Positions 2,137 to 28,042 of a DNA stretch of 36,774 nucleotides are shown in pieces. The position numbers were made by a program, and so were the translations under genes. Each line of letters opens with the position of its first letter. The first letter of the stretch is position 1. Source of the DNA: a virus (Duplodnaviria > Heunggongvirae > Uroviricota > Caudoviricetes); IMG/VR virus record IMGVR_UViG_2778261162_000005. The stretch is one strand, 5' to 3'. Below the pieces are notes generated by a model. The model did not search any database. It was not told the DNA's origin and saw only the letters and a list, made by a program, of their open reading frames with translations.

Positions 2137-2176
2137 ACATGAGATAAATGAAGGGGGATCTGTGAGATAAATAACG
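2137..2176. repeat. Terminal direct repeats, putative transposase-binding sites at prophage end
   Basis: ACATGAGATAAATGAAG (2137-2153) and TCTGTGAGATAAATAAC (2160-2176) share TGAGATAAAT.A, spaced 23 bp, beginning 8 nt inside an element end that starts TG. Confidence 0.5.
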
Positions 2177-2325
2177 AATTGGAGTGGGTTAACATGGGTT
2201 CTGGTGAACAGAACTGAAATTCTTTTCCGCTATACGATAGATAAGTCGGGCATTGAAATCATCCTTCCTGGCAACTTAGAATCGAGTTTGCTGAAACATG
2301 ACCCGCAACAAAAAGGATGATTCCA

Positions 2326-2487
2326 ATGACTACTCAAAACAATAAGCATGATAGCCTGGATTACTCAGAAAAGCCCAAAAGCAAGCACATCGTGACGTTC
2401 GAGCGCGATTCCGGTAGAAAAGGAGAATCGTCTTCCTCTGCCAATAAAACCACTATGCCGGCAGCCCCTGCCCCAGGGAAAAAATAA
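2326..2487 (+). CDS. Hypothetical small hydrophilic protein (53 aa)
   Basis: ATG at 2326 with AAGGA 7 nt upstream; MTTQNNKHDSLDYSEKPKSKHIVTFERDSGRKGESSSSANKTTMPAAPAPGKK; below the ORF-track length cutoff; low-complexity, so coding status uncertain. Confidence 0.25.
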   Translation: MTTQNNKHDSLDYSEKPKSKHIVTFERDSGRKGESSSSANKTTMPAAPAPGKK

Positions 2488-2490
2488 ACA

Positions 2491-3123
2491 TCATTCATCG
2501 TTCGTTGCACGAACGCGCCTGATCTCCACTCTGGCAATCTGATCTGCTGGAATATAGGTTGCCAGAGCTCCCCAGTACTTATCAACCACGCCTTTATACT
2601 CTTCCCATTCGTTACTGCCTGAAGGGCTGCTGTGCGTGACGTAAAGAACCATATCGCCTTTATTCCCCAGGGTAAACGGACCGTTAGGCCACTCTTCAAA
2701 GTTCCCTGGCAGCCGTGACATCATACCGGAACCATCGCGAAGAATCACTCTGACCTCGGTAACGCTGAAGCCTGTTTGATCAAACATTGCCTGCCATGCT
2801 GAGCTGGTATCGTCAGACCATGAAATATCATTATTCCACAGTAATCTGTACATCCATTTGCGACCGTACCTGCGCCACCACGCACCGCATGTAACGGCAC
2901 ACAGAAGTGCTGGTGGTGTTGCCAGCCAGGCATTCAGACCTGCCCACATAACAGCCTGGTAAGCCATCATTGCTGTCAGGCCAAAAATCAGCGAAGAAAA
3001 AGTCACCTCAATGGGCTTGTGGTGATCCTTCAGTCCCACATTCGCAATAAAATACCCAATATAGCCACTGGTCAGGGTCACCAGTGTTGCCCATGGCAGA
3101 TTTAACAACGAAACGTCAAACAT
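2491..3123 (-). CDS. Membrane protein with about 3 N-terminal TM helices and a soluble C-terminal domain; unknown function
   Basis: Start taken at internal ATG 3123 (MFDVSLLNLPWATL...) because GGAGA precedes it; hydrophobic N-terminal about 100 aa, soluble C-terminal about 110 aa; lies downstream of the early-operon terminator. Confidence 0.6.
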   Translation of the reverse strand: MFDVSLLNLPWATLVTLTSGYIGYFIANVGLKDHHKPIEVTFSSLIFGLTAMMAYQAVMWAGLNAWLATPPALLCAVTCGAWWRRYGRKWMYRLLWNNDISWSDDTSSAWQAMFDQTGFSVTEVRVILRDGSGMMSRLPGNFEEWPNGPFTLGNKGDMVLYVTHSSPSGSNEWEEYKGVVDKYWGALATYIPADQIARVEIRRVRATNDE

Positions 3124-3161
3124 ATTTTCTCCCTGCATCCTGAATACTAAAGAGAGAGCAT

Positions 3162-3198
3162 AAAAAAAGCACGGTAAGGGGTCTACCGTGCTTTTATA
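3162..3198 (-). terminator. Rho-independent terminator ending the early operon after mor
   Basis: Read on the minus strand: GCACGGTA-loop-TACCGTGC followed by TTTTTTTATG; plus-strand side has TTTTAT as well. Confidence 0.6.
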
Positions 3199-3237
3199 CA
3201 ATAAGGAGATTTTTGAAAGGACTTTAACAAGCAGGAA

Positions 3238-3636
3238 TTATCTGGATTTGTTAACGTCTTTCGTCTCCTCTGGCAGATCTTCATCAAACAACCTGCCCTG
3301 CATCCGATCCAGTTCTTCTTTTCTGACCCGCTTAACCACGCTGTAGACCCACTGAAGCGAAACACCAAACTTGCGGGCCAGTTCGTGGTGGTTGCGTCCG
3401 TTAAACTCCCTGAAGATTTCCCGGTCGCGCTGACTGACCTTCCATACCATGCCCATCGGGAAATAAACGTTTTGCCCGCCCCAGACCTGCATCATTCGGT
3501 TCGCGACGGCCTGACCAATCTGGTCGGCAATTGCGGGCTCAATATCAATAATCTCGCGAACGGTCTCAGAGGTATGCTGTGCCAGCTCCACCAGGAGTTC
3601 CGGCCCTTTACTTCGAAACTGATTCAGGTCGCTCAT
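3238..3636 (-). CDS. mor: Mor/C-family transcriptional activator
   Basis: 132 aa; block QNVYFPMG...RDREIFREFNGRNHHELARKFGVSLQWVYSVVKR matches the recalled Mor pattern (VYIP.G, FNGRN, ELA..YGVS, VY..I.R). Confidence 0.7.
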   Translation of the reverse strand: MSDLNQFRSKGPELLVELAQHTSETVREIIDIEPAIADQIGQAVANRMMQVWGGQNVYFPMGMVWKVSQRDREIFREFNGRNHHELARKFGVSLQWVYSVVKRVRKEELDRMQGRLFDEDLPEETKDVNKSR

Positions 3637-7088: not shown

Positions 7089-8255
7089 TTAAACCCCTTT
7101 GACAACGTCAGCGTTGACCTGTGGAACCCCGATTTCAGCGGCCAGATTCATGGCGGCTATCACCAGGTTACTGACGGCCAGCGGATACAGCAGGCTGACC
7201 CTGTTTTTACGATGACTTCCCGGATTGCTCAGGCGGGCACGTATGGCATCCACTGCGCCGGCGTCCATAATGTCCGTCAGTTGTTTACCGGCCCGTTGCA
7301 GTTTGAACGTCAGAAACTCTTCAAGGTTATTGTCGAGAGGCAGAAGTTCGACCACCTCACAGCGCTGAACGACTTCACGGACTTCCATATTGCGTTCAGA
7401 CAGTTTTGTCGCCAGTTCCGGCTGGCCAATCAGCACGATGGACAGCAGTTTTTTGAAACCGGACTCCAGCTCAAAAAAGCGTTTGAGGTGTTTCAGTGTC
7501 GGAACGGGCAGACTGTGGGCTTCCTCAATCACCAGAACGTGGCTGAACCCCGCCTGGCGGCTGTCTTTCAGGACGCGATGCAGCTGGCGAAAGCGGGCGT
7601 CCTGACTGCGTCTGATGCTTTCCAGTGGTGCGATGGTACTGATAATGGCTTCGGCAATCGCTGCTGCCTTCAGGGTTTTCCCTTTCACATCGTTGTCTTC
7701 CATGGCGATGACGTATGGCTCGATAATAATTACCGGCGCATTCTCGCGGTTGATACGTTCAGTCAGGTCACGGCGCAGCGTGGATTTACCCGCACCGGAC
7801 TCACCGATGACAGCCATAAACCCGCCATGACGGGCTGTCTGGTACAGCGCCTCACGCACGTAGCGAATGTCCGGGGTGGTGAACACATCATCAGAACCCT
7901 GCATGGCTTCGTCGGCGAACGGGTCACGGAAAAGACCAAACGCTTTTTTGGTTGCTGGAAATAACACCTGTTTTTTGAGTAACATATTCTCTTCCTCACT
8001 GAGGCTCGTTTTATCTGTGGTACCCGCTGTACGGGGCGTGGCCGCGCCCTGTACAGCATCAAAACTCTTCGCTGTATCAATCCCCTGACTTTCCAGCCAG
8101 GACGCAAGACGCCGGCGCACTTCTCCGGGGCTGGTGCGGGGCCACGCGTTATGATTCACAATCTGGGCCAGCGTGGCCTCAGAAACATCGACAGCTCTCG
8201 CCACCACCGCCTGTGGAATACGGGCCTCTTTCAGTTGCTGCTTCAGTACCAGCAT
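7089..8255 (-). CDS. Transposition target-DNA activator, MuB-like AAA+ ATPase
   Basis: Start at ATG 8255 (MLVLKQQ...) with AAGGAGG upstream; Walker A GESGAGKST, Walker B-like HVLVIEEAH; immediately downstream of the transposase. Confidence 0.75.
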   Translation of the reverse strand: MLVLKQQLKEARIPQAVVARAVDVSEATLAQIVNHNAWPRTSPGEVRRRLASWLESQGIDTAKSFDAVQGAATPRTAGTTDKTSLSEEENMLLKKQVLFPATKKAFGLFRDPFADEAMQGSDDVFTTPDIRYVREALYQTARHGGFMAVIGESGAGKSTLRRDLTERINRENAPVIIIEPYVIAMEDNDVKGKTLKAAAIAEAIISTIAPLESIRRSQDARFRQLHRVLKDSRQAGFSHVLVIEEAHSLPVPTLKHLKRFFELESGFKKLLSIVLIGQPELATKLSERNMEVREVVQRCEVVELLPLDNNLEEFLTFKLQRAGKQLTDIMDAGAVDAIRARLSNPGSHRKNRVSLLYPLAVSNLVIAAMNLAAEIGVPQVNADVVKGV

Positions 8256-8265
8256 GTTTCCCTCC

Positions 8266-10035
8266 TTAGTTGCCGTTAACAATGCTGATAACGCTGCTGC
8301 GGGCCGGCGTGGTCAGCGTGGCCATGACTTCATCCAGTGCAGCTTCCGGTACGCCGTCCGGGTACTGTGCCGTTAACTGGCGGTAATGTTCCGGCGTCCA
8401 GGTAAGGCCGTTGGCGCTGAACTTCCCGCGCAGGGCTTTCGCGGCCTCCACATGAGTCATGGGACGCTGTTCAGTGCGCGGTCCGCGTACGTCAGAGGCC
8501 TGACCTCGCTTCGGCATATAGGCCGGAAGTGTGGCGTCATCAATATGTTTATACGGGTCAAGCCGCCCGCCGAACGGCAGCGCCTTCGCCTTGCGTGCGG
8601 CAGCTGCATCTGCGGCGTTGTCTGTACCGGTGACCAGCGCTTCGGTTTCTTTTGCCGCCGTCTGTGCCGGTGTTTCCGGCAGGGCTTTGTAACTTTCGCC
8701 AAATACCGCCGCGCCTTCAGCAAAGCCAAACTCGTTCTTTCTGACCTCTTCGACCAGGAAGAACGTCTCGTGGCCGTCCTCACCGGTCAGAACCACCTGT
8801 GCCACATCGCTGCGCCACGGGTTACGGGTAATCATCAGTTTTTCACCGACCAGTACGCCCGGTACCGTTGATACGTCAAATTCAGTGCCCCGGAACGAGA
8901 CACGAAGTTTTGGCGTGACTTTGCGGAGTTCTGGTGCCGCCACAGCCAGTTCACGGCATACCTCAACGGAAGGCGCTTTTTTCAGCTGCTCAGCAGTAAT
9001 CTTCAGCCAGATATCCGTGCGGGTTTTACCGTGGCGGCTGTGAACAGCCGTGGCGTTAAAGTGGCTGCGCCATTTCGCGGCCAGCGCGTTGAGTTCTTCC
9101 AGACTGTGAACCGGCCGGAACTTCAGACCCGGCTCCAGCTTGCGTTCGATAATGTCACGCGCCTTTTCCACCTGTCCGGTGGCGCGGGCGTTATGCGGCT
9201 TGTGCGCTATCAGGTCGATGCCCAGTGAGCGACACATGTTTTTCGTCATACCCGCGGTGTTTGCCGAGCCGGGGTCGAGATAGAGTATTTTCGGCACGCC
9301 GTGCAGCACGTCTGCGCCGCCACGCTCCTGCATGGCGTTGATAAGCACAGAACACAGGTTCTCACCGGATTCCGCCCCCGTCACATACTCAACGTAAATC
9401 CAGCCGCTGGCATGGTCGGTAATCTCGTAACTCCACACGCGGTCACTGGCGATACGGGCAAGGTTAGCGGGCTTGTTCTTGTAGAACTTCGCGCTGTCCA
9501 TCACCTGCAGCCCTTTATGTCCATTGCTCAGGTAGTAAAGCGTGCAGAGTGAGGCGTCAATCTGCCAGACATGATTGGGATGCAGACTGGCCACTTCGGT
9601 ATGTGGTGCAGGGGCATCCAGTTGTTCCGGGTGCAGGCCATAGTTACGCAGGGCACGGCTGATGGCATCTTCAGACAACGGGAAAAACTCACCGGTGGTT
9701 TCATCTGTTCTGCCTGCGGTGATAAAGCCGTTAGCCCGCAGGGTTTCCACTGCATCTGCGATGGAATAGAGACGCTTACCGTTCTTGCGGGTGGCCTCAC
9801 GCAGTGTGGCAGATATCAGCGCGGCTTCGTCGCGGGTCAGGGCGCTGCGCCCGGCATCGGCGCGTTTTTTGCGTTTATCAGTCACAGAGACCTCCTTCAG
9901 CCTGCGCAGCAGAGTGGCGCGGGACATGCCAAGTTCAGCACAGGCAGCGTCGTATACTGCACCGCGTTTACCATGCCCCGCGTCACGTGCCGCGCGGGCG
10001 ACATAAACCAGTCGTTCAGTCAGGGCAGCATTCAT
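8266..10035 (-). CDS. DDE transposase (Mu A-like, rve integrase core)
   Basis: 589 aa; N-terminal HTH region; catalytic-core candidates HVWQIDAS, YLDPGSANT and GQVEKA (D, D, E); GGAGG upstream of ATG 10035. Confidence 0.8.
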   Translation of the reverse strand: MNAALTERLVYVARAARDAGHGKRGAVYDAACAELGMSRATLLRRLKEVSVTDKRKKRADAGRSALTRDEAALISATLREATRKNGKRLYSIADAVETLRANGFITAGRTDETTGEFFPLSEDAISRALRNYGLHPEQLDAPAPHTEVASLHPNHVWQIDASLCTLYYLSNGHKGLQVMDSAKFYKNKPANLARIASDRVWSYEITDHASGWIYVEYVTGAESGENLCSVLINAMQERGGADVLHGVPKILYLDPGSANTAGMTKNMCRSLGIDLIAHKPHNARATGQVEKARDIIERKLEPGLKFRPVHSLEELNALAAKWRSHFNATAVHSRHGKTRTDIWLKITAEQLKKAPSVEVCRELAVAAPELRKVTPKLRVSFRGTEFDVSTVPGVLVGEKLMITRNPWRSDVAQVVLTGEDGHETFFLVEEVRKNEFGFAEGAAVFGESYKALPETPAQTAAKETEALVTGTDNAADAAAARKAKALPFGGRLDPYKHIDDATLPAYMPKRGQASDVRGPRTEQRPMTHVEAAKALRGKFSANGLTWTPEHYRQLTAQYPDGVPEAALDEVMATLTTPARSSVISIVNGN

Positions 10036-10038
10036 TGG

Positions 10039-10950
10039 TTATGCCTCCAGCCCGTTAATCTGTGGCGTCGGCTCAGTCAGCCATGAAGGCGCGACATCGC
10101 CTGTTGGCTCGTCCGGCAGGTCAAATGTGGAGCGCAGGCTACGCGCTGTGCTTTCCAGTTGACAGACCAGGCCTGCCATGAAGTCTCTGGGGGTATCAAT
10201 CATGTTTTCAGCACAATATGCGCACAGTGTCTCAAAAGCGCTGGACAGTCGAACGGCGATGGCAGATTCCGCCTCAACCGCTAATGCTGTCACTTCCGCC
10301 CGCAGCTTCTTAACCTCCTCATCAGGCTCAGGCGGCTGAATACGGGATTTCTTCTCCAGTCTGGTGGAGAGTGAGTCTATTTTTTCATTTTTGTCGGCGA
10401 GTACGCGCTGTTGTGCTGCGTTGGTTTCGCGCGCTTCGCGCAGGGCCTGACGCAATTCACGTACTGACATGCGATCAACATCGTCAAGCGTCAGTCCTGC
10501 GACTGTGCCGCCGTCGGCCAGTTCAGCAAGGTCGTCGTCATCTTCAGCAACAAGTTCAAATAATTTTGCCTTACCTAAAAGCGACAACGTTGTCGCTTTT
10601 GGCTCTAGTTTTGGTGAAAGGTATTTCAAAGATGCTTTCATCATTCGTTGTGCTGCGCGCACATGCAGACCAAGTTGTTCTTCTACAATTCCAACAAAGT
10701 CCCCGTGTGGTTCATTTTCTTTGAGAATAATAAGTCGTTTACCTGCTTCCAGCATGGCCTCAGCGCTCTGTGCCATATAAAACCGAGCCTCATGAACTAT
10801 GCGATCACGCTCATAGGGCTGACCATCGCCAAACTGCTGCATGATCTCCATGCGATGCTGTGTCATGGCGTTCAGACTGACATTGAGATCATCCGACAGC
10901 GGTACCTCGGCGTTCAGTTCAGTGTTAATCGGTGATTTGGTGCGTCCCAT
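10039..10950 (-). CDS. Hypothetical early protein (303 aa), acidic with coiled-coil-like middle
   Basis: AAGGAG upstream of ATG 10950; sits between the Ner-like gene and the transposase, a position empty in Mu. Confidence 0.5.
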   Translation of the reverse strand: MGRTKSPINTELNAEVPLSDDLNVSLNAMTQHRMEIMQQFGDGQPYERDRIVHEARFYMAQSAEAMLEAGKRLIILKENEPHGDFVGIVEEQLGLHVRAAQRMMKASLKYLSPKLEPKATTLSLLGKAKLFELVAEDDDDLAELADGGTVAGLTLDDVDRMSVRELRQALREARETNAAQQRVLADKNEKIDSLSTRLEKKSRIQPPEPDEEVKKLRAEVTALAVEAESAIAVRLSSAFETLCAYCAENMIDTPRDFMAGLVCQLESTARSLRSTFDLPDEPTGDVAPSWLTEPTPQINGLEA

Positions 10951-10960
10951 TTATTACTCC

Positions 10961-11269
10961 TTACAAACGACTACCTGAAATGACACGTTGGTTGATTTCG
11001 TTAATGCGATCCTGTGCACGTGCCATCTCGTTACTGTGGGCCATAGCGATCTGCAGTAACTGGATGCCCGGCGCGAAACGCCCGTTTTCCAGTTTCAGGG
11101 CCAACCCTTCTTCAATGAGGGTGTTGAGTGCCCGGTTGATGTTTGCCGGTGACTCGTGCAGTGCTGCCGCCAGTTCACCGTTGGAAATACCGTTCAGGGC
11201 ATGACCGCGCAGCGCTTTGAGTACCCGGAGGATGCGACTGCCGGAGCTTGAAACATTCGTCTTACTCAT
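10961..11269 (-). CDS. Winged-helix DNA-binding protein (IclR/MarR-like HTH)
   Basis: Start at ATG 11269 with AGAGG 8 nt upstream; ILRVLKALRGHALNGISNGELAAALHESPANINRALNTLIEEGLA resembles an IclR-type N-terminal HTH. Confidence 0.45.
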   Translation of the reverse strand: MSKTNVSSSGSRILRVLKALRGHALNGISNGELAAALHESPANINRALNTLIEEGLALKLENGRFAPGIQLLQIAMAHSNEMARAQDRINEINQRVISGSRL

Positions 11270-11321
11270 CTGCATACCTCTTTTGCGATATGTGATAACC
11301 TTTTACAAAGACTCAAAATCT

Positions 11322-11510
11322 TCAGGCTGCCTGAGCTGTTGATTTCAGCCCCAACTTCACGGCGATTTCATGGGATTTACCGTAACGGGCTTTGGTCTGC
11401 CCATTGAGAACGCGGTATACCTCATTGCGGTTGTAGCCGTTTTCTTCTGCCCAGCGGGTGAAAGTGATCCCGCGCTGGCGGAAGAGAGCTTTGACTTGTT
11501 CTGCAGTCAT
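11322..11510 (-). CDS. Ner/Cro-like small DNA-binding protein, first gene of the early operon
   Basis: 62 aa; AAGGAGA 6 nt upstream; divergent from the repressor gene, the position Ner occupies in Mu. Confidence 0.5.
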   Translation of the reverse strand: MTAEQVKALFRQRGITFTRWAEENGYNRNEVYRVLNGQTKARYGKSHEIAVKLGLKSTAQAA

Positions 11511-11610
11511 CGTTGTCTCCTTTGTTGATGCAATGATGTTTGCCTTATGTGTGATAGATTATGGTGCAGATTATCTCACCAGTCAACTTAAAGAGTGCAG
11601 AAAAACTCAC
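11511..11610. promoter_or_regulatory. Divergent early/repressor promoter-operator region
   Basis: 100-bp gap between divergent starts; contains direct repeats AGATTAT (x2) within TGATAGATTATGGTGCAGATTATCTCA. Confidence 0.45.
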
Positions 11611-11949
11611 ATGATCGGGTTACGTATTAAAGAAGAAAGAGAGCGTCTATCTCTTACACAGCAAGGGTTGGCTGATGCTATAGGTGTGGCAAAGAGAACT
11701 TTCATTGATTGGGAAAAAGATCGCACTTCTCCTACTGCAGTGCAGTTATCTGCACTATCAGAAATCGGTGTAGATATTTTGTATGTAGTTACTGGGGTGC
11801 GGAGTCAGCCTGTTGTTGCACCTTATGTGTCACAAGAAAAGAAAGAGTTAATGGATGCATTCGACGAAATGAGCCCCGAACAACGGAGGGCAATTCTTGA
11901 GGTCGGCAAAGTCTTCATTCAACCCAAACCAAGCAAACTCGCAGGCTGA
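11611..11949 (+). CDS. XRE-family HTH repressor (c-like)
   Basis: MIGLRIKEERERLSLTQQGLADAIGVAKRTFIDWEKDRTSP is a typical XRE HTH; divergent from the early operon. Confidence 0.6.
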   Translation: MIGLRIKEERERLSLTQQGLADAIGVAKRTFIDWEKDRTSPTAVQLSALSEIGVDILYVVTGVRSQPVVAPYVSQEKKELMDAFDEMSPEQRRAILEVGKVFIQPKPSKLAG

Positions 11950-12035
11950 TTTTGACCTGGACACAAAGGGCGCGTGGTTGATCTGGATGCTTTCAGAAAA
12001 CATCGCCAGTGACATAGTGGAAGTTGTTTGGTTTA

Positions 12036-12065
12036 CCGGAAAGCATTGTGCTTTCCGGTTTTGTT
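12036..12065 (+). terminator. Rho-independent terminator after the repressor gene
   Basis: CCGGAAAG-CATTGTG-CTTTCCGG followed by TTTTGTT, between convergent repressor and Dam genes. Confidence 0.55.
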
Positions 12066-12829
12066 CAGAAGTTGCAGATTACCAGTTCACGGCGTGGCGT
12101 GGGTTTCCCCGCCAGACTGTAGTTGATATTCACCGTCTGTATGTTCAGTTCAGTGAACACCCGACGCATCTGCGGAATGTCATTCACCGAGATAATCATC
12201 TTTCCTCTGATGCACCGTGCCAGTTCTGCGAGTAGTGTGTAGTTCTCTTCAGGAAAATCCACACCATAGCCTTCCGTCCCCAGATAGGGCGGATCACAGT
12301 AGAACAGCGTGTGCGGACGGTCATAACGCTTAATGCACTGGTGCCAGTCCATGTGTTCTATCACCGTTCTGGAAAGCCGCAGGTGTGCCGCTGACAGTTC
12401 TTCTTCAATCCGTAGCAGGTTGAAGCGTGGCGGGGAGGTGGTGGAGGTGCCGAAGCTGTGCTCTGCCACCTTGCCCCCAAACGCCTGCTTCTGGAGGTAG
12501 TAGAACCGTGCCGCACGCTGGATATCCGTCAGTGTTTCTTCCGGGGTGATCTGCAGCCATTTGTAGATCTGCCGGCTAACCAGCGCCCATTTGAATTGGC
12601 GGACAAATTCTTCCAGATGATGCTTTACTACCCGATACAGATTTACCAGTTCACCGTTGATATCGTTAATGACTTCGATCTTGCTGGGAGTCTTGAGAAA
12701 ATAAAGTGCTGCTGCGCCGCAGAATGGCTCCACATAGCAGGTATGGAGTGGGAACTGAGGCAGAATGTGTTTGGCCAGACGACGTTTTCCCCCAATCCAG
12801 GGGACGATGGGTAAAGATTGTTCTTTCAT
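12065..12829 (-). CDS. DNA N6-adenine methyltransferase, Dam-like (D12 class)
   Basis: Start at ATG 12829 (MKEQSLPIVPWIGGKRRL...); FCGAAAL AdoMet motif and DPPY catalytic motif. Confidence 0.8.
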   Translation of the reverse strand: MKEQSLPIVPWIGGKRRLAKHILPQFPLHTCYVEPFCGAAALYFLKTPSKIEVINDINGELVNLYRVVKHHLEEFVRQFKWALVSRQIYKWLQITPEETLTDIQRAARFYYLQKQAFGGKVAEHSFGTSTTSPPRFNLLRIEEELSAAHLRLSRTVIEHMDWHQCIKRYDRPHTLFYCDPPYLGTEGYGVDFPEENYTLLAELARCIRGKMIISVNDIPQMRRVFTELNIQTVNINYSLAGKPTPRRELVICNF

Positions 12830-12935
12830 TATCTGTAAGCCTTTTTCATTAGATGAAAATGCGATAGGCTTCCCTTGTTCTCGAGAACGGAAGAGCCTCG
12901 GTTGACTCACAGCTCATACCTGTAAGTTGATGACT
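12786..12935. repeat. Direct repeat copy 1 (Dam 5' end plus upstream region)
   Basis: Aligns by hand with 13419-13565; shared blocks CCAATCCA.GG.ACGATGGGTAA, TTTCAT.ATCTGTAA and CCTCGGT.G.CTCACAG..CAT.CCTGT. Confidence 0.6.
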
Positions 12936-12964
12936 CGCCTTGTGTTCGCTGCACAAGGTGAGTC
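12932..12964. promoter_or_regulatory. Imperfect palindrome upstream of P1 (hairpin or operator)
   Basis: GACTCGCCTTGTG-TTCGCTG-CACAAGGTGAGTC followed by GCTCTTTTC; GACTC/GAGTC motif occurs three times in 12903-12964. Confidence 0.4.
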
Positions 12965-13023
12965 GCTCTTTTCATGTTATTTGCATATTTCATGGGCGAC
13001 AATTAAAGGGAGTTACTAATACC

Positions 13024-13404
13024 ATGGCCCCAAAAAATATTGAGCGGTTTAATGAAATAGTTGGTGAGATATTTGGGAGACTCTACGAATCTTTCCCCGT
13101 CAAAATTGATATAAAGGCAGTTGATATCGTTAGACAGAATGAACTTACTTTTTTTCTTGATACCGTAGACTGGCTTAAAAACAGTGGCTATTTAATCGGG
13201 GCGCGTAGTTCTGGGGGGATCCACAACGCAGTGCTAACGGCTAAAGGTCTTGAGGTATTAAACGCTACGCCTGGAAGTCTGGAAAAACCGTTGGGGGCCA
13301 GAATATCTGACTCTATAAAAATTGAAGGGAAAGAAGCGTTGCGATCACTGGTTAGCCAGACTCTAGGAATAGGTCTGCAATATATGTCTCGTGGTCTTAT
13401 GTAA
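13024..13404 (+). CDS. Hypothetical protein P1 (126 aa), paralog of 13868-14272; unknown family
   Basis: ATG 13024 (MAPKNIERFNEIVGEIFGRL...); body visibly AT-rich; shares GxIFxRL, F(L/I)DTxxWL and VLTxKxLxxLNAxP motifs with P2. Confidence 0.6.
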   Translation: MAPKNIERFNEIVGEIFGRLYESFPVKIDIKAVDIVRQNELTFFLDTVDWLKNSGYLIGARSSGGIHNAVLTAKGLEVLNATPGSLEKPLGARISDSIKIEGKEALRSLVSQTLGIGLQYMSRGLM

Positions 13405-13464
13405 TATCGCAAGGCAGCGTTTGCCACCAATCCATGGAACGATGGGTAATGTCTGCGTTTTCAT
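13363..13464 (-). pseudogene. Truncated Dam 5' fragment (copy 2)
   Basis: Minus-strand ATG 13464: MKTQTLPIVPWIGGKR matches the Dam N-terminus, then the frame runs into the antisense of the P1 3' end and stops after 33 codons. Confidence 0.55.
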
Positions 13465-13565
13465 AATCTGTAAACATTTTACAATTATTAAAAATATGGC
13501 AGGCTAGTCTGGTCTCACGAGACTGACTGAACCTCGGTCGGCTCACAGTGCATTCCTGTGGGACG
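13419..13565. repeat. Direct repeat copy 2 (Dam 5' fragment plus upstream region)
   Basis: See copy 1; same orientation, immediately 3' of P1. Confidence 0.6.
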
Positions 13566-13609
13566 ATGGCCAGCCCGGCTTTCGGGTGCCGGGCTGGTCG
13601 TTCTTTCAT
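13562..13609 (-). pseudogene. Dam 5' fragment (copy 3) interrupted by a 28-bp palindrome
   Basis: Minus strand ATGAAAGAAC...CCATCGTCCC matches the Dam start, with CCAGCCCGG-CACCCGAAAG-CCGGGCTGG inserted between; on the plus strand the palindrome is followed by TCGTTCTTTC (terminator-like). Confidence 0.5.
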
Positions 13610-13653
13610 GATGCGGCAGGGATAGTGGGATTTCTGTTAATGCGGTTTAGGGA

Positions 13654-13869
13654 TTATCCGGGGTGATTTTCTGACCTTATCTGGTCCAGGGCGTAAGTGA
13701 GCCCTTCTGCAAAAACAGAAGTATCAAACTGCTTTTGTATTTCCTGAAAATGAACAGTGGCACGACAGATACTCAGTTCTCCGCGATGTAACCGGATAAT
13801 ATCTTCCAGAACATTGTTCACTGCTTCAGCACGGCGCTGATGTTCTGTTAACGTTAATCGGGGATTCAT
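13654..13869 (-). CDS. Hypothetical small protein (71 aa)
   Basis: ATG 13869 with AAGGAG 7 nt upstream; charged, helix-prone; its start overlaps the P2 start on the opposite strand. Confidence 0.35.
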   Translation of the reverse strand: MNPRLTLTEHQRRAEAVNNVLEDIIRLHRGELSICRATVHFQEIQKQFDTSVFAEGLTYALDQIRSENHPG

Positions 13870-14272
13870 GATGCACTCCTTAAATGATGATTTTTATGTA
13901 CTCACCGGCAAAATATTCTGCCGATTACTGAACACGCATCCGGTACCTCAGGTTTTGATTTATTCTGGTTTTTTCGATATCCCGGACCAGGTTGATCACG
14001 ACCAGAAAAAGTGCCGGTATTTTATTGATACGCTGATATGGCTTCGGGATAACAGCTATATTCGTTACTCTCAGTTGCTGGCTGTGGGAGCGGCTGATGT
14101 CGTCCTCACGGAAAAAACGCTCTGTCTGCTCAATGCCATGCCGACCTTTCTGCAGCCCCGGCCCGTGCCATTTAAAGAGTCGCTTCTGGATGCAGTAAAA
14201 ACCGGTGAAAATGCAGTCATCGCTGAATGCGTATCCCGGATTATGCGTTACGTGTTTAATGAACGTAAGTGA
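13868..14272 (+). CDS. Hypothetical protein P2 (134 aa), paralog of 13024-13404; unknown family
   Basis: N-termini of P1 and P2 align without gaps from the first Met (F9, G14, I16, F17), supporting this start. Confidence 0.55.
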   Translation: MMHSLNDDFYVLTGKIFCRLLNTHPVPQVLIYSGFFDIPDQVDHDQKKCRYFIDTLIWLRDNSYIRYSQLLAVGAADVVLTEKTLCLLNAMPTFLQPRPVPFKESLLDAVKTGENAVIAECVSRIMRYVFNERK

Positions 14273-14991
14273 GGTTTATCCGTTGTCTGCATAATCCCGA
14301 TAGCCAGTGCGAGGGGAAGCAATTCCGGGGAAACTTTTTCAAACAGCGATTCCCATTCTCCTCTCGCCATCACTCTGTCCAGCCCGCCCTCCAGCTGCAT
14401 TTCAGCAATCTTCCTGATTTCCCGGAACAACGCCGCTTTGATCTCTTCATGCTCAGCTTTATTTTCCGGTGTCAGAATGTATTCGTCGAAGAACCGGGGA
14501 GGCTGGTTAACGGGGATTGTGTTCACCGGGATGTGTTCCTGCTTCCCGTACTTCGGGGCCGAAAAACATTCTGTTGGCTGACCAGCGAGTTTACGTAACT
14601 CCTTCATGAGCAGCTCCTGATCGTAAACTGTCATCAGTGCCGCAATGGTGGCATGCAGTGCATCGGGCAGTATCCAGGGTTGCCGGCCCGTGGGGCATAT
14701 AACATCCAGCAGCTCATTCGTCCGACAGATACGCTCCTCGCCGTATGACAACAGGCCCTGTCCCGTGTATTCCTCCAGCCTGATCACTGTGCCAGCCCGT
14801 GGCTTCTGCCAGGTCGTCAGATCATCGCCACTCATACGGCGCTCATTCTCCACGTCAGCAGCATCGACAATGACGCTGTTTCCGAGTTCCTGTTTCACCA
14901 TCTCTTCTATCCGCGCCAGTACGTAACTTTTACCGCTGCCCACAGGACCGGACACAGTGACAGTGATGACCGGATTCAGTGTGTGCGTCAT
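14248..14991 (-). CDS. P-loop NTPase / kinase-like protein of unknown type
   Basis: 247 aa; Walker A GPVGSGKS at residues 15-22, Walker B-like VIVDAAD; C-terminal about 170 aa without recognisable motif. Confidence 0.6.
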   Translation of the reverse strand: MTHTLNPVITVTVSGPVGSGKSYVLARIEEMVKQELGNSVIVDAADVENERRMSGDDLTTWQKPRAGTVIRLEEYTGQGLLSYGEERICRTNELLDVICPTGRQPWILPDALHATIAALMTVYDQELLMKELRKLAGQPTECFSAPKYGKQEHIPVNTIPVNQPPRFFDEYILTPENKAEHEEIKAALFREIRKIAEMQLEGGLDRVMARGEWESLFEKVSPELLPLALAIGIMQTTDKPHLRSLNT

Positions 14992-27521: not shown

Positions 27522-28042
27522 TGTCAAAGATTGAGATAAACCGAATCACGAATGCCAACATCTATCTGGATGGTACTAACCTGCTGGGACGGGCTGAGGA
27601 GGTTAAACTCCCCGATGTCTCCATGATTATGCAGGAACACAAGGCACTGGGGATGGTGGGTAAGGTGGAACTCCCGGCTGGTTTTGACAAACTGGAAGGC
27701 GAAATCAAATGGAACAGCTTTTACCGCGATGCGATGCTGTCTGCCGCGAACCCGTACAAGTCGCTGGCGCTGCAGTGTCGCTCCAGCGTCCAGCGCTACA
27801 GCTCGCAGGGGCTGATCGACGAAATCCCGCTGGTCACCTTCCTGACAATTATGTTCAAGAAGAACCCGCTGGGGACGTTTAAACAGCACGAGAACGCCGA
27901 GTTCTCCAGTAGCTTCACCTGCACGTATATCAGACAGGTACTGGATGGTGAAGAGTTGCTGCAACTGGACTATCTGGCCAACATCTTCCGCGTCGGTGGC
28001 GTTGATCAACTGACTGACTATCGGATCAATATCGGGGGCTGA
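27521..28042 (+). CDS. Tail tube protein
   Basis: 173 aa following the sheath; ATG overlaps sheath stop. Confidence 0.7.
   Translation: MSKIEINRITNANIYLDGTNLLGRAEEVKLPDVSMIMQEHKALGMVGKVELPAGFDKLEGEIKWNSFYRDAMLSAANPYKSLALQCRSSVQRYSSQGLIDEIPLVTFLTIMFKKNPLGTFKQHENAEFSSSFTCTYIRQVLDGEELLQLDYLANIFRVGGVDQLTDYRINIGG

Follow-up and report, generated by a model that had tools for sequence, protein, structure and literature searches.

The window, by which the whole stretch of 36,774 nucleotides analysed here is meant, carries near its left side a pair of short repeats for which a first-pass annotation had suggested a function. The two repeats, 23 bp apart between positions 2137 and 2176, were thought to lie a few bp inside the terminus of a prophage and to resemble the transposase-binding end sites of Mu-type elements. 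This raises the question of what the repeats are and to which kind of element they belong. From the comparisons described below they are very probably two docking sites for the transposase, located at the left tip of a BcepMu/B3-type prophage in E. coli kdpA.

Both copies of the repeat were found. The exact 10-mer TGAGATAAAT is located on the + strand at 2140–2149 and again at 2163–2172, 23 bp from start to start. These are its only two exact copies in the window, and the pair is the sole exact direct repeat of at least 10 nt within 40 bp in the entire 36.8 kb. Of the 13 positions outside the 10-mer core the two 23-bp units share 3, no more than chance would give. In simulations with a first-order Markov model of the window, exact direct repeats of a 10-mer within 40 bp numbered 1.34 on average, and 63% of the simulations had one or more. 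About one such repeat is thus expected anyway, as a chance duplication without function would require, and by itself the repeat is not beyond chance. Its weight comes from position and from conservation in relatives; it is significant because it lies near the element end, recurs inverted at the other end and is conserved across the family. For a repeat to fall into the outermost 43 nt of a mobile element the chance is roughly 1e-3, and for the same 10-mer to recur inverted at the identical offset of the other end roughly 1e-6. In addition the positions are conserved among phages whose transposases are only 50–68% identical, in spite of spacers which are not conserved. On these comparative data a chance origin is effectively refuted, with a negligible probability left to it.

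The exact end of the element was obtained by comparison with 5,426 complete E. coli genomes, 118 of which contain the full left end. In every full-length match listed (13 rows, drawn from the whole ranking) the alignment begins at base 2130. The host genes adjoining the left end vary among the matches listed, ptsP and gudD being examples, and where junctions were read directly, in the window, M-17, and ABU 83972, the base preceding the TG is different each time. As homology starts at 2130 in the matches listed and the flanks differ, T2130 is the left terminus of the prophage, and the sequence reads TGATCAGACA from there. The position of the repeats at a prophage terminus was thus borne out by the shared start of homology; they are, however, not a few bp inside it, the cores beginning 10 and 33 nt inside T2130. 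The features of this end are as follows.

2124–2129, + strand: ACACCG, host kdpA bases abutting the prophage, presumed left copy of a 6-bp target-site duplication by analogy with M-17 and ABU 83972
2130–2131, + strand: left terminal dinucleotide 5'-TG, where homology starts in E. coli genomes; BcepMu, B3, and PM105 also begin with TG
2140–2149, + strand: L1 core TGAGATAAAT, predicted terminal transposase-binding site, nt 11–20 of the element, conserved in relatives
2163–2172, + strand: L2 core TGAGATAAAT, predicted second transposase-binding site, nt 34–43 of the element, with an identical inverted 10-mer at the M-17 right end

On the host side the open reading frame 780–2132 encodes a truncated KdpA covering Pfam profile positions 2–394 of 548. 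The gene is cut after the codons ...GRTP, and the TGA stop is contributed by the phage terminus. High-affinity potassium uptake by Kdp should be inactive in this host. The right copy of the duplication falls beyond the window, 6-bp duplications having been read at two other insertions. For the source genome a right junction is predicted in which ...GCGCATCA is followed by ACACCG and then by the remaining part of kdpA.

As the window ends within a tail-fibre gene and does not reach the right end, the symmetry of the two ends was read from near-identical prophages elsewhere. The prophage of E. coli M-17, which has 38,313 bp and is inserted in otsA, is 99.98% identical to window positions 2130–36771 and colinear over 34,642 bp. 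Its right end reads, from the terminus inward, TGATGCGCCG CGCGATAAAC GTACCTATTTCCG TGAGATAAAT, with a 13-nt spacer between the cores. The outer core R1, CGCGATAAAC, is located at nt 11–20 and matches TGAGATAAAT at 7 of 10 positions, and the inner core R2 at nt 34–43 is TGAGATAAAT itself, inverted relative to the left end. The inverted copies that the first-pass annotation had suggested looking for are thus found at the very distances seen on the left, and the motif, the absence of which from the other terminus would have spoken against end sites, is present there. In ABU 83972 the left end of the prophage is the same as in the window, and the right end carries CGCGATAAAT at nt 11–20 and TGCGATAAAT at nt 34–43. 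Both insertions have the termini TG...CA. They are flanked by 6-bp target duplications, TCCAGC in M-17 and ACAAAT in ABU 83972, which stem from two independent insertions. A duplication of 6 bp is the footprint of the B3/Tn552-family transposases (PMC8705779).

A further element, AAAAGAATTNCAA, is conserved in the right ends of the E. coli, Klebsiella KP12, B3, and PM105 elements, about 70–85 nt from the terminus, and is weaker in BcepMu. All its places lie outside the window.

L001, 39238–39255: AAAAGAATTNCAA element
L084, about 38190–38210: AAAAGAATTNCAA element
L003 and L086, last 90 nt: AAAAGAATTNCAA element
L087, 15–30: AAAAGAATTNCAA element

How general the arrangement of the end sites is was seen from related transposable phages. 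The ends of BcepMu, B3, and PM105 were taken from the termini of the deposited phage genome records, which start with TG and end with CA. At both ends of all three, cores with the consensus YGMGAWAWWY are found at nt 11–20 and at nt 33/34–43, the same layout of two plus two sites. The cores are listed here with the positions of the inner ones in brackets; those of PM105 resemble those of B3.

Window and M-17: L1 TGAGATAAAT, L2 TGAGATAAAT (34–43), R1 CGCGATAAAC, R2 TGAGATAAAT (34–43)
ABU 83972: L1 TGAGATAAAT, L2 TGAGATAAAT (34–43), R1 CGCGATAAAT, R2 TGCGATAAAT (34–43)
BcepMu: L1 TGAGATATTT, L2 CGCGATATTT (34–43), R1 CGCGATATTT, R2 CGCGATAAAT (34–43)
B3: L1 TGAGAAATAC, L2 CGCGATAAAG (34–43), R1 CGCGAAATTT, R2 CGCAATAAAT (33–42)

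For BcepMu and its relatives Summer and colleagues (2004) are cited in the KS10 paper, in which consensus TnpA binding sites and TG...CA termini are referred to as previously described for BcepMu (PMC2628397).

In five sequences of 36–44 kb in which both ends are present (the complete records of BcepMu, B3, and PM105 and the 44-kb loci of M-17 and ABU 83972) the two-site pattern matches both termini and nothing else. A scan for related transposases in one genome per bacterial species yielded 80 loci, in which 36 matches occur on the expected strand 5.2–9.6 kb beyond the transposase start, compared to a single match elsewhere in 1.58 Mb with both strands counted. A weight matrix found further ends with a spacing of 21–23 bp, for example in Photorhabdus, Iodobacter, and Pandoraea. 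Related cores occur at the same offsets, with variable spacers, in some 35 other left ends from a wide range of proteobacterial genera. An identical end is found in six genera beside unrelated flanking DNA, with the break exactly at the TG. For 31 unique left ends the information content was 1.93 bits per position at nt 1–3, 0.69 at nt 4–10, 1.68 at nt 11–20, 0.51 at nt 21–33, and 1.54 at nt 34–43; as most of these ends were retrieved by a pattern which requires the motif, the conservation of the cores is partly built in, and the low values of the spacers are not. The M-17 and ABU 83972 insertions as well as BcepMu, B3, and PM105 are free of this bias.

In BcepMu, B3, PM105, and the 31 unique left ends the L1 position reads TGAGATAWWT or TGAGAAATAC. 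The outer cores of the two ends differ in a conserved manner, with TGAGA in L1 and CGCGA in R1 in the E. coli prophage, BcepMu, B3, and PM105, and from this difference the four sites need not be bound equally. Within 260 nt of either terminus no third site per end was common to the lineages. The extra matches in this range, a single weak one in PM105 and two diverged, overlapping ones in BcepMu, are lineage-specific.

Some single candidates from the window were considered separately. The sequence CGATAGATAAGT at 2235–2246 was rejected as a third site, being unmatched in relatives. Copies of the core with one mismatch occur internally at 27532, 30113, and 32488, which makes five matches in total compared to 1.4 expected, a number reached in 3 of 100 shuffles; as extra sites they are within chance, and none stands in a two-site arrangement. 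The 7-mer GAGATAA is found eight times in the window compared to 2.3 expected, and 0 of 100 shuffles reached eight. Outside the ends and the operator it occurs at 12189, 16161, 18536, 27533, and 32489, at none of these places in a two-site arrangement.

Transposable phages begin headful packaging near their left end. The repeats might accordingly be regarded as a packaging (pac) site bound by the small terminase instead of the transposase, since the motif stands at the left end, where the pac site of Mu lies, and the prophage has a small-terminase-like gene of the DUF3486 type. Left-specific periodic GGGA motifs just inside L2 also bear on this. In the 31 unique left ends GGGA (or GGG) occurs near nt 46–49, 56–58, and 66–69, with a period of about 10–11 bp, a motif which was not required by the left-end search pattern; GGGA motifs are not consistently present at right ends.

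2180–2199, + strand: degenerate copies of the GGGA type, left-end-specific periodic motif (TGGAG at 2180–2184, GGGT at 2186–2189, and GGGT at 2196–2199)
GGGA-bearing left ends outside the window: L005, L011, L021, L028, L037, and L075; BcepMu, L002, 44–70; B3, L003, 44–60

These GGGA repeats may be a pac site or a site for an accessory protein, and they are a better pac candidate than the cores. The same cores are found inverted at the right end and at the same distances in every lineage examined, which fits transposase sites and is unexpected for a one-sided pac site. Packaging as the function of the cores is therefore most improbable, and the docking of a transposase remains the preferred reading.

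The protein which would bind the cores is encoded within the prophage next to a putative partner.

8266–10035, – strand: transposase TnpA, 589 amino acids, rve/DDE type (Pfam rve; phrog_310), predicted binder of L1, L2, R1, and R2
7089–8282, – strand: AAA+ ATPase, TnpB or MuB-like transposition partner (Pfam AAA_22, E 2e-20; phrog_296 'DNA transposition protein', E 2e-92)

The match of TnpA to the phrog_310 transposases has an E value of 6e-148. Over the full length TnpA is 68% identical to BcepMu TnpA (gp09) and 57% to B3 TnpA (ORF12), and it shares 50% identity with PM105 TnpA. The position of the ATPase matches those of BcepMu gp08 and B3 ORF11. When the transposase was compared to plasmids by tblastn, IS481-family transposases at about 25% identity were obtained and no staphylococcal Tn552, so that a profile comparison was needed for detecting homology to the latter. 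A profile of 28 TnpA proteins of the family aligned by hhalign to the Tn552 transposase p480 of pN315 with a probability of 96.8% and an E value of 2e-10, over 243 columns with 24% identity. This homology covers the catalytic core and the beta-barrel; the N-terminal regions of TnpA and p480 gave no alignment in hhalign. Sequence searches of PDB with the transposase yielded only retroviral integrase cores and a weak match to TnsB; up to E = 1, MuA was not among the chains matched.

For the N-terminal 150 amino acids of TnpA two small helical modules were predicted, residues 3–49 and 68–139, with a pLDDT of 76. A basic disordered linker connects them, and they show weak similarity to DNA-binding folds. 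Such a two-module N-terminus would fit, as weak evidence, a bipartite end-binding region. In the predicted structure the stretch ahead of the catalytic core leaves no space for a third domain that would bind an enhancer as in Mu, which agrees with the description of this family (PMC8705779).

The literature searched for BcepMu or B3 contained no biochemical evidence of transposase binding. For physical binding, its stoichiometry, and the order of assembly we infer the following scheme from the arrangement of the sites. Each end would offer two sites in the same register, at nt 11–20 and 34–43 from the TG/CA terminus, those of the left and the right end being mutually inverted. Each core would be occupied by one protomer of the DDE transposase, bound through the two DNA-binding modules of its N-terminus, and with a spacing of 23 bp neighbouring protomers would sit on almost the same side of the helix. 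Once the ends are paired, a transpososome of four protomers would result, in which the catalytic domains at the outer sites would cut at the terminal CA-3', a distance of 10 nt from these sites. Joining of the cut ends to the target with a stagger of 6 bp would lead to the observed duplications, and the adjacent AAA+ ATPase may help in the choice of the target.

With its Tn552-related TnpA the element is classified, by sequence, as a transposable phage of the BcepMu/B3 type. In common with BcepMu (Bcepmuvirus) it has TG...CA termini and two cores per end at nt 11–20 and 34–43. As in BcepMu, the left end, Mor, GemA, TnpB, TnpA, and DUF3102 belong to one strand, and the repressor, lysis, head, and P2-like tail genes to the other. 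In the window Mor is located at 3238–3636, and the Mor/GemA early module is transcribed toward the left end; a divergent early promoter region is located near 11500–11610. The lysis, head, and P2-like tail genes are encoded on the + strand, and an invertase and a variable tail-fibre module follow at the right end. The cores of the E. coli prophage differ from those of the Burkholderia phage BcepMu at 2–3 positions, its own two left cores being identical. It is further distinguished from BcepMu by its immunity region and operator and by the invertase/tail-fibre module. The gene order matches B3 as well as BcepMu. B3 (Beetrevirus, from Pseudomonas) and PM105 also share the TnpB partner, the TG...CA termini, two cores per end, and the L1 TGAGA and R1 CGCGA outer cores; they are, however, of the siphovirus type with a different tail module, their cores are of the kind TGAGAAATAC and CGCGAAATTT, and the spacing at their right end is 22 instead of 23 bp.

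Phage Mu has three 22-bp MuA sites at each end (L1–L3 and R1–R3) with uneven spacing, makes a 5-bp target duplication, and has an internal transpositional enhancer which overlaps its operators. Subterminal transposase sites, TG...CA termini, a DDE transposase with an ATPase, and the Mor and GemA genes are common to Mu and the E. coli prophage. The latter differs from Mu by two sites per end, the 6-bp duplication, and an inverted early region. In the structural model, moreover, the TnpA region preceding the catalytic core comprises about 150 amino acids in two modules, lacking the N-terminal enhancer-binding domain (I-alpha) of the MuA type. What the first-pass annotation had called Mu-type therefore holds in the sense of transposable-phage end sites, which the inverted right-end copies and the conservation in the family support, and does not hold for Mu proper, the transposase being of the BcepMu/B3 kind.

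Tn552 of staphylococci has, with p480, a transposase homologous to TnpA and an ATP-binding partner protein as well; unlike the prophage it is a 6.5-kb resistance transposon and not a phage. On each Tn552 end p480 reportedly footprints two adjacent, directly repeated 23-bp motifs. The 23-bp period of the prophage ends recalls these motifs and may be a parallel to them. In the Tn552 copy of pN315 no clear terminal inverted repeats were found within 7400–14300.

A second place in the prophage resembles the end sites. A related motif on the reverse strand, GAGATAATC, had been noticed in the operator region. It does exist, at 11569–11577, which is 15 bp away from 11584–11592, where it had been placed.

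11548–11580, no strand assigned: operator-like imperfect inverted repeat GTGTGATAGAT ... GATTATCTCAC, overlapping the early leftward promoter, with GTGTGATAGAT at 11549–11559
11586–11581 and 11563–11558, – strand: –35 box TTGACT and –10 box CATAAT of the early leftward promoter, separated by a 17-nt spacer

The motif GAGATAATC falls within this 17-nt spacer and is inverted relative to GTGTGATAGAT. The promoter layout recurs in B3, phiE255, BcepMu, and PhiKM, with different, lineage-specific palindromes that lack GAGATAA. The operator motif is best read as part of the immunity operator and not of the transposition apparatus.

This resemblance leads to a further explanation of the repeats, in which the end cores are half-sites for the immunity repressor, or for another early regulator, holding the ends in the lysogen, so that the operator copy reflects shared specificity. 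Two inverted matches to the L2 site, each at 10 of 12 positions, are found at 11548–11559 and 11569–11580, and compared to random windows of the same genome this end-like sequence is nominally significant (P 0.0065). In matched windows of BcepMu, B3, and PM105 no such resemblance is seen (P 0.78, 0.12, and 0.72, respectively), and it is likewise absent in PhiKM. Moreover, the end cores form direct repeats with a 23-bp period, and a dimeric helix-turn-helix repressor needs paired half-sites in inverted orientation. Lineages with differing immunity regions retain the cores, and the end motif tracks the conserved transposase and not the variable immunity region; PhiKM, with a 98% identical transposase, retains the same kind of end cores alongside a different operator palindrome and repressor. 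It is thus very unlikely that the cores are repressor half-sites in place of transposase sites. Occupancy by the repressor could add to binding of the transposase, not replace it.

For the transposase docking sites favoured here, the resemblance of the operator to the end core is probably coincidental. That the core GTGAGATAA, which forms both palindrome half-sites at 11548–11580, reflects real functional cross-talk is unlikely. If it did, the transposase might dock at the early promoter, which would then be an enhancer-like or autoregulatory site, and an enhancer-like site would occur in a phage family thought to lack the Mu enhancer system. Alternatively, the repressor might occupy L1, L2, and R2 and directly block assembly of the transpososome in lysogens.

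Two other observations concern this region. The repressor reading frame probably starts with the ATG at 11611 (ORF 11611–11949) and not with the GTG at 11458 given in the list of reading frames or the TTG at 11491 of the M-17 annotation. In many relatives the sequence ATATGTGATAATCTGT is conserved just upstream of a gene with an IclR-type helix-turn-helix domain; the version of the window is ATATGTGATAACC at 11289–11301. Sites of this type are one mismatch away from the end-site core.

ATATGTGATAATCTGT in relatives, about 1.26–1.5 kb upstream of the transposase: L004, L005, L008, L010–L017, L040–L047, L052, L053, and L066

The architecture of the element matches the descriptions of BcepMu and B3 and adds no new principle. 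For a BcepMu-like prophage which is widespread in E. coli, the results define the left boundary precisely (2130), together with the end sites that act in cis. Carriers of this prophage include ABU 83972, a strain obtained from long-term asymptomatic bacteriuria, and M-17, which was obtained from the medicine 'BIOFLOR'. Together with the TG...CA termini and the 6-bp duplication, the 43-bp ends allow precise annotation of such prophages and detection of insertions like the disruption of kdpA, and known ends would permit the design of mini-transposon tools. That two sites per end and the asymmetry of L1 and R1 are conserved throughout the family is a consolidated observation of use for studies of a second transposable-phage transpososome besides that of Mu.

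Several minor features were observed close to the left end. A terminator-like hairpin with a T-run faces inward at 2197–2215 (+ strand), 68 nt inside the left end, and might stop read-through coming out of the kdp operon of the host. Next come a promoter-like site at 2253–2282 (+ strand) and a reading frame of 53 amino acids at 2326–2487 (+ strand). A reading frame of 210–236 amino acids at 2491–3201 (– strand) has no Pfam match. The stretch between the left end and Mor looks like a small cargo region. GATC sites are found at 2131–2134, overlapping the terminal TGATC, and at 2157–2160, and a D12-class adenine methylase is encoded at 12065–12910 (– strand). Control of end usage by Dam is speculation only, GATC being unconserved in relatives with ends reading TGATTAGAC.

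Finally, a remnant of about 145 bp of the prophage left end, corresponding to nt 10–154 with about 90% identity, is found in large ColV-type plasmids (L090, 6001–6144, in pAPEC-O2-211A-ColV). It keeps both TGAGATAAAT cores and the hairpin, without the terminal TGATCAGAC and the phage genes, and in E. coli genomes remnants of this type occur on plasmids at about 105 places.
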